Positions 29,503 through 30,795 of a stretch of DNA of 64,000 nucleotides are shown in pieces. This DNA is from an uncultured Anaerolineales bacterium (GTDB lineage: Bacteria; Planctomycetota; Phycisphaerae; FEN-1346). Every line of letters begins with the position of its first letter. The first letter of the stretch is position 1. The notes beneath the pieces were generated by a model. The model was not told where the DNA came from, did not search any database, and saw only the letters and a program-made list of their open reading frames with translations. Where the stretch lies: the NCBI GenBank assembly GCA_964577175.1, contig CAZNYC010000001.1, positions 14,851-78,850 of the forward strand. Direction: 5' to 3'. A program made the position numbers and the translations under genes.

Positions 29503-30795
29503 ATGAGACCGCGTCGCGACTGCCTCATCCTCTTCGGCCGGTACCCCGAAGCGGGGCGGGTCAAGACACGGCTCATCCCCGCACTCGGGCCGGCCGGTGC
29601 GGCAGACCTCCAGCGACGGCTCACCGAGCGGGCGCTGGCCGAGGTCCGGCGGGCGGCCCGCCAGGCCGGGACGTCGGTGGAGGTCCGTTATGCCGGCGGC
29701 AACCGACGGCGGATGCGGCGGTGGCTCGGCGACACCCTCTCCCTCGTACCGCAGGGACCGGGCGACCTGGGGCACCGCATGCGCCGGGCCCTGTTTGCCG
29801 CTCTCGCCGACGGCGCCGGCCGCGCCGTCCTCGTCGGGACGGACGTCCCCTGCGTGACCGCCGGCCACCTCACGCGGGCCCTCGACGTCCTCACGCAGCG
29901 CGACGTCGTATTCGGTCCGAGCACGGATGGCGGGTACTGGCTCATCGGCATGCGGCGGCCGACGGACGTCTTCCGCGGCATCGATTGGGGCACGCCGCGC
30001 GTGCTGGACCAGACCCTCCGGGCCGCGCGGGAGGGGGGGCGAAGCGTCGGCCGGGTCGAGCGGCTCGCGGACCTCGATACGCCGGACGACCTGGCGGCGA
30101 CGGTGCCGTCCGAGGTGCCCGGCCGGCCGTACCTGTCCGTCATCATCCCCGCGCTGAATGAATCCGCGCAGATCGCCGACGCGATTGCCACCGCGCGCGA
30201 CCCGGACGCCGAGGTCCTGGTCGCGGACGGCGGCAGCGCGGACGCCACGGCGGCCATCTCCCGCGAGGCGGGAGCGCGCGTTCTCGCGAGCCAGCCGGGC
30301 CGGGCCGTCCAGCAGAACCGGGGGGCCGGGGAGGCTCGCGGCCGCGTCCTCCTCTTCCTGCACGCCGACACCCGCCTGCCGTCGGCCTACGTCGGCCACG
30401 TGTTCGAGGCGCTGATGGACCGCGGCGTGGTCGGCGGGGCTTTCCGCTTCAAGACGGACCTCGATACGCGGTGGATGCGGGTTATCGAACGGCTGACGGA
30501 CTTGCGCTCCCGGCGTCTGCGGCTGCCGTACGGCGACCAGGGCCTGTTCGTGCGGCGGGAGGCATTCGAAACGCTCGGCGGTTTACCCCAAGTGCCGATT
30601 GCTGAGGACCTTCACTTCGCTCGGCGCCTGAACCGCCAAGGGCGGGTCGTGACGCTGGACCTACCCGTCGTGACCTCCGCGCGCCGGTGGCAAACGGCGG
30701 GCCCGCTGCGGACCACGCTGGTACATCAGGCCGTGGTCGCCGGCATCTACGCGGGCGTACCGATGGCGTGGCTGGCACGGCTCCGCGGGCGCTGA
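29503..30795 (+). CDS. Fusion of DUF2064 transferase (rSAM/selenodomain-associated transferase 1-like) and family-2 glycosyltransferase (transferase 2-like)
   Basis: N-terminal LILFGRYPEAGRVKTRL (DUF2064 signature) followed by a second domain LSVIIPALNE...VADGGSAD...LFLHADTRLP (GT2). 430 aa. Confidence 0.6.
   Translation: MRPRRDCLILFGRYPEAGRVKTRLIPALGPAGAADLQRRLTERALAEVRRAARQAGTSVEVRYAGGNRRRMRRWLGDTLSLVPQGPGDLGHRMRRALFAALADGAGRAVLVGTDVPCVTAGHLTRALDVLTQRDVVFGPSTDGGYWLIGMRRPTDVFRGIDWGTPRVLDQTLRAAREGGRSVGRVERLADLDTPDDLAATVPSEVPGRPYLSVIIPALNESAQIADAIATARDPDAEVLVADGGSADATAAISREAGARVLASQPGRAVQQNRGAGEARGRVLLFLHADTRLPSAYVGHVFEALMDRGVVGGAFRFKTDLDTRWMRVIERLTDLRSRRLRLPYGDQGLFVRREAFETLGGLPQVPIAEDLHFARRLNRQGRVVTLDLPVVTSARRWQTAGPLRTTLVHQAVVAGIYAGVPMAWLARLRGR

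Follow-up and report, generated by a model that had tools for sequence, protein, structure and literature searches.

The 64-kb stretch of contig CAZNYC010000001.1 analysed here (the window, taken at its full length) contains a gene for a protein, the target of this study, in which a DUF2064 domain of family TIGR04282 is joined to a family-2 glycosyltransferase (GT2) domain of family TIGR04283. All the sequence and structure criteria that were applied place the target in TIGR04282 and TIGR04283, and its gene closes a cluster that recurs across phyla, composed of genes for a radical SAM (rSAM)-ArsM-DUF5714 protein, a DUF547 protein, a VTT/DedA protein, an FAD oxidoreductase, a fatty-acid (FA) hydroxylase and the fusion itself; the gene set of the window is the planctomycete version of this cross-phylum cluster. 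Our reading, to which we give slightly better than even odds (about 0.55), is that the target acts in an arsenosugar or arsenosugar-lipid pathway as a nucleotidyltransferase and inverting glycosyltransferase; for the late steps that are still missing from arsenosugar synthesis it is a reasonable candidate.

The target protein and its two domains

The window has about 70% G+C and its mechanical lists of open reading frames (ORFs) are full of spurious frames, and the G+C content by codon position was used as a filter. The target ORF starts with an ATG 9 nt past the stop codon of the upstream transglutaminase-core lipoprotein gene, and it is regarded as a real gene because its codon-position values (GC1/2/3 of 0.78/0.55/0.89) are typical of real genes in the window. 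An earlier note on this DNA had described a single protein that starts as DUF2064 and continues as GT2, and profile searches bear this out: both peptides are present (ILFGRYPEAGRVKTRL at residues 9-24 and LSVIIPALNE at residues 211-220) and both families score above curated cutoffs. In Pfam, DUF2064 is matched at residues 49-164 (E=1.2e-33, 116 bits against a cutoff of 25.8) and Glycos_transf_2 at residues 212-355 (E=2e-15). The same note had placed the two halves among the rSAM-associated transferases, and in NCBIfam TIGR04282 is indeed matched at residues 8-197 with 192.5 bits against a curated cutoff of 134, and TIGR04283 (full-length model, equivalog) at residues 211-425 with 222.8 bits against 182.

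The AlphaFold2 model of the target, built with 18 homologues as input, is confident (pLDDT 89.5, pTM 0.87) and consists of two alpha/beta domains with C-terminal helices at residues 394-429. Its N-terminal half has the DUF2064 fold as in 3CGX, with the KTRL, GTDxP, DGGYW and DxDT motifs present, and its C-terminal half a GT-A fold in which the acidic motifs for nucleotide binding and catalysis are present; the protein is predicted to lack transmembrane segments, the maximum 19-residue hydropathy being 1.4 at residues 406-424. The N-terminal domain carries a K21-T-R-L24 loop and a three-aspartate motif (D114, D190 and D192), which are invariant in 18 fused homologues and in one free-standing TIGR04282 protein of Burkholderia. 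In profile alignments to CofC/FbiD, K21-T-R-L falls on AK(S/T)RL, G-T-D114-x-P on (A/G)DLP, and D190-x-D192-T-P-x-D-L on D(I/V)DxPxDL. In FbiD, two Mg2+ ions are held by D116, D188 and D190 and in turn bind the phosphate of the substrate (PMC6450877); the same three aspartates in the CofC that activates 3-phosphoglycerate bind its product through the alpha and beta phosphates (PMC8764529). The motifs of the GT2 half are DGGS (242), LHAD (286-289), PYGDQ (342), AED (367-369) and RRW (394-396), among which D242, H287-A-D289 and E368-D369 are invariant, R394-R395-W396 being present as well. The succession D, D, D, xxRW is the motif pattern of inverting GT2 enzymes. Taken together, structure and motifs point to two joined enzymes: a nucleotidyltransferase resembling CofC/FbiD, whose Mg site of three aspartates is intact, and an inverting transferase of the GT-A type.

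Compared with characterised or solved proteins, the target keeps a place of its own. 3CGX, a structural-genomics entry from Desulfovibrio desulfuricans G20 named 'putative nucleotide-diphospho-sugar transferase', is a free-standing single DUF2064 domain with function unassigned, whereas the target is fused. CofC/FbiD, the 2-phospho-L-lactate, phosphoenolpyruvate (PEP) or 3-phosphoglycerate guanylyltransferases of F420 biosynthesis, share fold and metal site with the target, but they have CofD as partner, an F420 context and a phospho-acid substrate, while the target has a GT2 domain as partner, no F420 context and presumably a sugar phosphate as substrate; membership in the CofC/FbiD family (TIGR03552) was rejected at 40.9 bits against a cutoff of 105. 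With the inverting GT2 enzymes DPMS, GtrB, PcManGT and the GT21 ceramide glucosyltransferase the target has in common the GT-A fold, the D...D...D...RW pattern and the C-terminal amphipathic helices, but all specific family models are below cutoff, it has no transmembrane segment, and a His occupies the first position of the DxD motif (HxD). Assignments to GpgS, to dolichyl-phosphate hexose transferase and to AglJ were likewise rejected (38.3 against 262, 24.9 against 375 and 33.9 against 325 bits, respectively).

Conservation of the cluster across genomes

To describe the genomic setting, a scan of one genome per species yielded at least 598 confirmed matches to the fusion, and the counts below refer to the best 80 of them, whose 10-kb neighbourhoods were searched by tblastn with all cluster proteins; 51 of the 80 loci have at least 12 kb of sequence. 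These 80 matches belong to Desulfobacterota, Planctomycetota, Cyanobacteria, Nitrospirota, Verrucomicrobiota, Lentisphaerota, Spirochaetota and others. The nearest relative (L001), a Phycisphaerae metagenome-assembled genome (MAG) whose cluster proteins are 81-87% identical to those of the window, has the order rSAM-ArsM-DUF5714, VTT, FAD oxidoreductase, FA hydroxylase and fusion. A second Phycisphaerae MAG (L003) has ArsM, MIP, ArsS (confirmed at 406 bits), DUF547, VTT, FAD oxidoreductase, SpoIIE, DsrE, FA hydroxylase, a GT87-like gene and a triple fusion, and the metagenome contig L005 has an rSAM-ArsM gene without DUF5714, followed by DUF547, VTT, GH130, FAD oxidoreductase, a GT87-like gene and a triple fusion.

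On the whole, VTT is found in 16 of the 80 loci, FAD oxidoreductase in 13, DUF547 in 9, the GT87-like gene in 8 and FA hydroxylase in 4, and in an unbiased clustering of all neighbouring ORFs VTT ranks first among the non-self families. Of the 80 loci, 35 have one or more of the conserved partners, as do 29 of the 51 with at least 12 kb; an arsenic gene (ArsS, rSAM-ArsM fusion or ArsM-like) lies within 10 kb in 17 of the 80, and in 14 of the 51. ArsS is seen in 10 loci and rSAM-ArsM-DUF5714 in 5, both together in none, and the rSAM-ArsM fusion and ArsS are mutually exclusive across 15 informative loci; a separate ArsM-like gene is seen in 5 of the 80, 3 of which also have ArsS. This linkage of partners is far above chance for single-copy genes. 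The earlier note had expected the fusion to be linked to rSAM/ArsM genes in related genomes, and the 81%-identical relative with the same cluster, together with the 17 loci, shows that the link is real but patchy.

In known systems of TIGR04282 and TIGR04283 the same neighbours recur (VTT, FAD oxidoreductase, DUF547, FA hydroxylase and ArsM). The two families were defined for association with ArsS (TIGR04167), of the radical SAM/Cys-rich kind, while the window has instead the rSAM-ArsM-DUF5714 gene and, upstream of the target, two non-conserved lipoprotein genes; the association with ArsS is the single family-defining feature that the window lacks. Two further kinds of gene were seen beside the fusion in other genomes. 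A gene of the glycoside phosphorylase family GH130 lies inside the cluster in L005 (6047-6985), in a Phycisphaerae MAG (L047) and in two Planctomycetaceae MAGs (L039 and L060), and could be an alternative phosphorylase in place of methylthioadenosine phosphorylase (MTAP). In 14 loci of Desulfosarcinaceae/Desulfobacteraceae there is a radical SAM protein of a third kind, unrelated to the others, with about 440-560 aa, the motif CNARCLGC and no NCBIfam equivalog (e.g. L044 6608-7954), its gene being directly downstream of DUF2064-GT2 in 13 of the 14 and about 6 kb away in L036; both ArsS and ArsM are missing nearby in these 14 loci. The possibility that this Desulfosarcinaceae protein is a relative of the rSAM domain of the window was rejected, the two being unrelated on comparison.

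The rSAM-ArsM-DUF5714 protein

The rSAM-ArsM-DUF5714 protein is the more unusual element of the locus than the target. Its methyltransferase (MT) domain aligns with the arsenite methyltransferase CmArsM (4FR0/4KW7) at E=4e-35 and keeps all of the As(III)-binding cysteines of that enzyme (Cys72, Cys174 and Cys224), which justifies the name ArsM; its best family match is also arsenite methyltransferase. The family matches of the rSAM domain are of the MoaA/SPASM type, and its identification as ArsS was rejected, with 25% identity to a bona fide ArsS over 105 residues and TIGR04167 not among the top family matches. The claim of the earlier note that the two transferases are companions of radical SAM/Cys-rich proteins is thus supported, with one caveat: the families match and arsS adjoins them on plasmids, but the rSAM domain of the window is SPASM/MoaA-like and not ArsS. 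The DUF5714 part resembles the metal-binding selenoprotein MbdU. In all, 887 homologues of rSAM-ArsM-DUF5714 were found, including those of cultured Desulfuromonas and Syntrophotalea, with generic names only and no functional name.

In the ArsM and ArsS pathway of Synechocystis there are, as in the window, an ArsM-type domain with As-binding cysteines and a radical SAM enzyme, but the rSAM domain of the window is of a different family from the Synechocystis ArsS; in related clusters a true ArsS occupies the slot of the window rSAM. The rSAM-ArsM-DUF5714 protein appears to replace ArsM and ArsS. In all six cyanobacterial loci with the fusion, no arsS was found within the sequence examined around the locus.

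Plasmids with separate transferase genes

In the INDEPENDENTLY annotated contexts, free-standing TIGR04283 and TIGR04282 genes are located on plasmids, so that the pairing which is one polypeptide in the window is made of adjacent separate genes in Burkholderia and Acinetobacter. In Burkholderia thailandensis and B. glumae, arsS is followed at some distance by DUF6969, S-methyl-5'-thioadenosine phosphorylase, TIGR04283, TIGR04282 and FAD oxidoreductase, with a fused VTT/FAD oxidoreductase further along. In Acinetobacter portensis the order is arsS, VTT/FAD oxidoreductase, DUF547, TIGR04283, TIGR04282, an ArsM-like methyltransferase (31% identical to the MT domain of the window, cysteines kept) and a phosphate transporter (PiT), past which, on the opposite strand, there are mtnP (56% identical to the MTAP of the Burkholderia cluster) and then a sterol desaturase (33% identical to the FA hydroxylase of the window). 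On a Hymenobacter plasmid, DUF547 is found beside a run of TIGR04283, epimerase, SDR and arsS. Thus arsS is near TIGR04283 on Burkholderia, Acinetobacter and Hymenobacter plasmids, and TIGR04282 is there too on the first two.

The MTAP gene inside the arsS/TIGR04283/TIGR04282 cluster (Burkholderia L087 8051-10406; Acinetobacter L093 8995-13378) suggests that the transferases are fed by phosphorolysis of the adenosyl-arsenical. MTAP, DUF6969, DoxX and the Burkholderia hypothetical proteins were all absent from the window and from 86 loci, and the MTAP link is therefore not generalisable. A different setting for the DUF2064 family is seen on a Roseomonas plasmid (L095 8953-15913), where TIGR04282 is accompanied by DUF547, two radical SAM genes, a phosphonate ABC transporter and a metallophosphoesterase, with neither TIGR04283 nor arsS.

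A proposed pathway

From the observed domain identity, fold, motifs and cluster conservation, and with the chemistry of ArsS and of CofC/FbiD taken from published work, we infer what the substrates are, in which order the steps occur and what is produced, as follows. The target would be a soluble or membrane-peripheral two-step enzyme. Its DUF2064 domain, with the K-T-R-L loop and the three aspartates holding two Mg2+, would transfer a nucleoside monophosphate from a nucleoside triphosphate onto a phosphorylated substrate, the product being a labile intermediate activated by nucleoside diphosphate (NDP); the GT2 domain would pass the activated group to an acceptor with inversion, and the fusion would allow the intermediate to be handed on without release. 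The labile product of CofC remains bound to the enzyme, and its channelling to the transferase that follows has been proposed (PMC8764529); this lability and channelling provide a reason for the fusion.

In the pathway as a whole, the ArsM domain would make dimethylarsenite from As(III), and the radical SAM domain, which stands where other genomes have ArsS, would add a 5'-deoxyadenosyl group as ArsS does, giving dimethylarsinoyl-adenosine; ArsS itself adenosylates DMAs(III) to 5'-deoxy-5'-dimethylarsinoyl-adenosine (DDMAA; PMC13598754). An enzyme of the methylthioadenosine-phosphorylase type would then remove adenine to give alpha-5-deoxy-5-dimethylarsinoyl-ribose-1-phosphate, MTAP being a candidate because dimethylarsinoyl-adenosine is, like methylthioadenosine, a 5'-substituted adenosine. 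For the window, we assume by analogy that the rSAM domain adenosylates although it is not ArsS, and we also assume a source for the phosphorylase. The DUF2064 domain would next turn arsenoribose-1-phosphate into NDP-arsenoribose, a sugar-1-phosphate being a natural substrate for a nucleotidyltransferase, and the GT2 domain would transfer the arsenoribose to a glycerol-type or lipid acceptor to give a beta-riboside, i.e., an arsenosugar or arsenosugar lipid. This outcome would agree with the beta-ribofuranoside form of natural arsenosugars, since enzymes of family GT2 invert. The FA hydroxylase, VTT/DedA, FAD oxidoreductase and DUF547 proteins may serve the lipid or redox side; the FA hydroxylase and DedA-type protein, along with the DPM1-like and GT-C genes elsewhere, suggest a lipid acceptor or carrier. 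The arsenosugar or arsenolipid pathway proposed in the earlier note is thus supported by the match to the current NCBI family names, with the product put forward by inference.

A more detailed version, which we regard as possible and rather doubtful, is that the window holds a variant cluster in which rSAM-ArsM-DUF5714 has displaced ArsM and ArsS non-orthologously, the fusion and a housekeeping MTA phosphorylase supply the late steps, the acceptor on which the beta-arsenoriboside is formed is a hydroxylated lipid or glycerol, and the DedA-type protein flips the product across the membrane.

Points against the pathway and other explanations

A number of observations weigh against the arsenosugar pathway. 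In 63 of the 80 related loci, including those of complete Desulfosarcina genomes, there is no arsenic gene within 10 kb, and none of the cluster partners is found in the six of six cyanobacterial loci or in most of the Desulfobacteraceae loci. Starting from rSAM-ArsM-DUF5714 in Desulfuromonas sp. AOP6, Syntrophotalea acetylenivorans and a Thermodesulfobacteriota MAG, DUF2064/GT2 is found within 10 kb in 0 of 3. As the rSAM domain is only 25% identical to ArsS over 105 residues, the adenosyl-arsenical intermediate is here assumed by analogy. No canonical ArsS or MTAP gene is present within the 64-kb window, nor are GT87-like, MIP or GH130 genes, and the MTAP linkage is limited to two plasmid contexts of proteobacteria, which have several flanking genes in common and may go back to one origin. 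The GT2 half has HxD in place of the usual DxD. In biology, NDP-ribofuranose donors are uncommon, and the substrates known for activation by CofC-type enzymes are phospho-acids, not sugar-1-phosphates. Finally, NCBI grades TIGR04282 no higher than 'hypoth_equivalog', and the literature searched contained no experiment on either of the two families TIGR04282 and TIGR04283.

The cluster could instead make a non-arsenical envelope glycolipid or polyprenyl-phosphate-linked sugar, the arsenic genes being passengers or sharing lipid machinery in some lineages. We consider this unlikely: ArsS/ArsM-type genes occur within 10 kb in 17 of the 80 loci, in several phyla, and in three annotated plasmid lineages, this linkage is far above chance for single-copy genes, and the operon junctions join DUF547, VTT and FAD oxidoreductase directly to the rSAM-ArsM gene. 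It is not cleanly separate from the arsenosugar pathway either, as the lipid reading also fits an arsenosugar-lipid product.

The remaining two explanations concern the substrate, and we give little credence to either. The N-terminal domain could be a true CofC/FbiD that joins a phospho-acid (of the 3-phosphoglycerate, 2-phospholactate or PEP type) with GTP on the way to a metabolite or cofactor that is linked to glycerate or lactate and has nothing to do with arsenic, seeing that the phospho-acid guanylyltransferases, which have the three-aspartate motif in common with the N-terminal half, are the characterised structures nearest to it, that CofC (TIGR03552) is weakly matched at E=1.7e-10 and that the GT2 half weakly matches glucosyl-3-phosphoglycerate synthase (GpgS). 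But both matches score far below their cutoffs, as given above for the family assignments, no CofD/FbiA or other F420 genes are found in the window or related loci, and the recurrent ArsS/ArsM/MTAP neighbours are left unexplained. A similarly slim chance is given to a cluster that handles another metalloid or chalcogen (Se, Sb or Te) or, in general, ribose derived from 5'-deoxyadenosine or methylthioadenosine, the sugar not being arsenical. ArsS-family proteins are often selenoproteins, DUF5714 is similar to a metal-binding selenoprotein, genes for DsrE, thioredoxin, CcdA and DoxX are repeatedly found near the cluster, and the normal substrate of MTAP is methylthioadenosine; against these stand the three As(III)-binding cysteines kept in an MT domain that best matches arsenite methyltransferase, and the adenosylation of dimethylarsenite, which has been biochemically shown for ArsS.

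How common the fusion is, and what would follow

In a homologue search over 5.8 billion proteins, the target has 5860 matches at E<=1e-10 among the scored candidates. One match (P0001) is 100% identical to the target. The closest named relative among the matches listed is from a Phycisphaerae MAG, with 81% identity for the fusion protein, and the window therefore most likely belongs to a planctomycete of the Phycisphaerae. All 120 homologues among the matches listed have both Pfam domains, mostly with lengths of about 424-495 aa and with some longer forms, and both halves are covered in 80 of the best 80 species-level matches; the T1-T2 fused architecture is thus the same as in known TIGR04282 and TIGR04283 systems, and its origin by frameshift or mis-assembly was rejected, since 120 of 120 share it. 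The longer forms reach about 666-716 aa (P0007, P0039, P0088 and P0104 too). Two that were examined (L003 10001-12013 and L005 10001-12001) are triple fusions of a DPM1/AglJ-like GT2, TIGR04282 and TIGR04283, both directly 3' of a GT87/MptA_B-like GT-C gene, and this placement hints at a polyprenyl-phosphate-linked sugar branch.

The fusion had been put forward in the earlier note as a notable feature. It is in fact ordinary, common and already labelled, as 'rSAM/selenodomain-associated transferase 2/transferase 1' by JGI for the fused form and as 'TIGR04283 family arsenosugar biosynthesis glycosyltransferase' by NCBI for the fused homologues. TIGR04282 and TIGR04283 were formerly 'rSAM/selenodomain-associated transferase 1 and 2', and NCBI now names both 'arsenosugar biosynthesis glycosyltransferase'. 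Public annotation already covers the gene, its architecture and the pathway presumed for it; the target is another member of a known, uncharacterised family, and its identification is what automatic annotation already gives. Literature searches on TIGR04282, TIGR04283, DUF2064 and DUF547 with arsenic returned nothing relevant on characterisation.

The literature searched covers the first two arsenosugar steps, i.e., ArsM and then ArsS making dimethylarsinoyl-adenosine, and enzymes for the removal of adenine and the formation of the glycoside were not found in it. The TIGR04282/TIGR04283 pair is the database curators' candidate for the late steps. Three features give a concrete chemical route that can be tested: a metal site of the CofC/FbiD type that is intact, a GT2 domain of the inverting kind and, on plasmids of Burkholderia and Acinetobacter that can be cultivated, a neighbouring gene for MTA phosphorylase. 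The cluster is widespread in anaerobic Planctomycetota and Desulfobacterota, and if the more detailed version of the pathway is true, these non-photosynthetic anaerobes would be unrecognised producers of arsenosugars or arsenolipids; no arsenosugar work on the two groups turned up in the literature searches, which did not target them directly.

Gene neighbourhood in the window

The features of the locus are collected in Table 1. The rSAM-ArsM-DUF5714, DUF547, VTT/DedA and FAD oxidoreductase genes form a tight four-gene operon upstream of the target, in which the ATG of DUF547 overlaps the rSAM-ArsM stop codon by 4 nt and that of FAD oxidoreductase overlaps the VTT stop codon by 4 nt. The public gene model of rSAM-ArsM-DUF5714 has 1015 aa, for which the start would be GTG 20391. 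In 20000-32300 a single promoter match was found (against 0.4 expected) and no terminator-like sites, both being weak evidence.

Table 1. Coordinates of the target, its domains and its neighbours in the window
Feature	Position	Strand	Remarks
Sigma-70-like promoter match	20264..20293	+	Just 5' of rSAM-ArsM gene; weak evidence
Radical SAM + ArsM-type As(III) methyltransferase + DUF5714 fusion	20298..23438	+	Mechanical ORF, 1046 aa; Pfam/NCBIfam
DUF547 protein	23435..24295	+	N-terminal signal peptide; conserved cluster member
VTT/DedA (TVP38/TMEM64) membrane protein	24279..25061	+	Most frequent neighbour of fusion
FAD-dependent pyridine-nucleotide disulfide oxidoreductase (PRK06370, MerA-like)	25058..26578	+	506 aa
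FA_hydroxylase/sterol-desaturase-type membrane di-iron enzyme	26612..27718	-	Conserved cluster member; start uncertain, homologues about 290 aa
His-rich (EHPEGA)n repeat lipoprotein	27694..28350	+	Signal peptide ending in lipobox Cys
Transglutaminase-core lipoprotein	28375..29493	+	Signal peptide ending in lipobox Cys
Bifunctional DUF2064(TIGR04282)-GT2(TIGR04283) protein (target)	29503..30795	+	430 aa; Pfam, NCBIfam, AlphaFold2, homologues
N-terminal TIGR04282/DUF2064 domain, CofC/FbiD-like nucleotidyltransferase fold	29524..30093	+	aa 8-197
C-terminal TIGR04283 GT2 domain, GT-A fold	30133..30777	+	aa 211-425

The earlier note had placed the rSAM-ArsM gene 6 kb upstream of the target, with an FA hydroxylase and two lipoproteins in the neighbourhood. 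All are located as described, the measured distance from the end of the rSAM-ArsM gene being 6.07 kb. The role that it gave the lipoproteins in the pathway did not hold up: by tblastn both occur in 0 of the 80 related loci and are also absent from the cluster of the nearest relative, and they were rejected as parts of the conserved system. The BNR gene downstream of the target is likewise found in 0 of the 80. The His-rich lipoprotein, whose (EHPEGA)n repeats are at its N- and C-terminal ends and possibly bind metal, is probably encoded by a lineage-specific insertion. The transglutaminase-core lipoprotein gene is an insertion between FA hydroxylase and target relative to the nearest relative, and it is probably co-transcribed with the target because the gap is 9 nt.

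Further from the locus, a 1243-aa protein (44547-48278, +) has a hydrazine-synthase-alpha middle domain and a Laminin_G_3 domain, and a similar HZS_alpha protein of 1203 aa (L005 14133-17744) is located 2 kb downstream of the triple fusion in L005. A giant ORF of more than 5800 aa (2-17404, +) with RTX calcium-binding and FG-GAP repeats runs off the window start. An Rnf/Nqr-type electron-transport operon (38610-44180, -) comprises an NqrF-like Fer2/FAD/NAD subunit, two Rnf-Nqr subunits, an RnfD/NqrB-type subunit and an Fe-S subunit, and upstream of it there are a TAT-signal sulfatase (35103-37043, -) and a GH127 enzyme (32164-34902, -).

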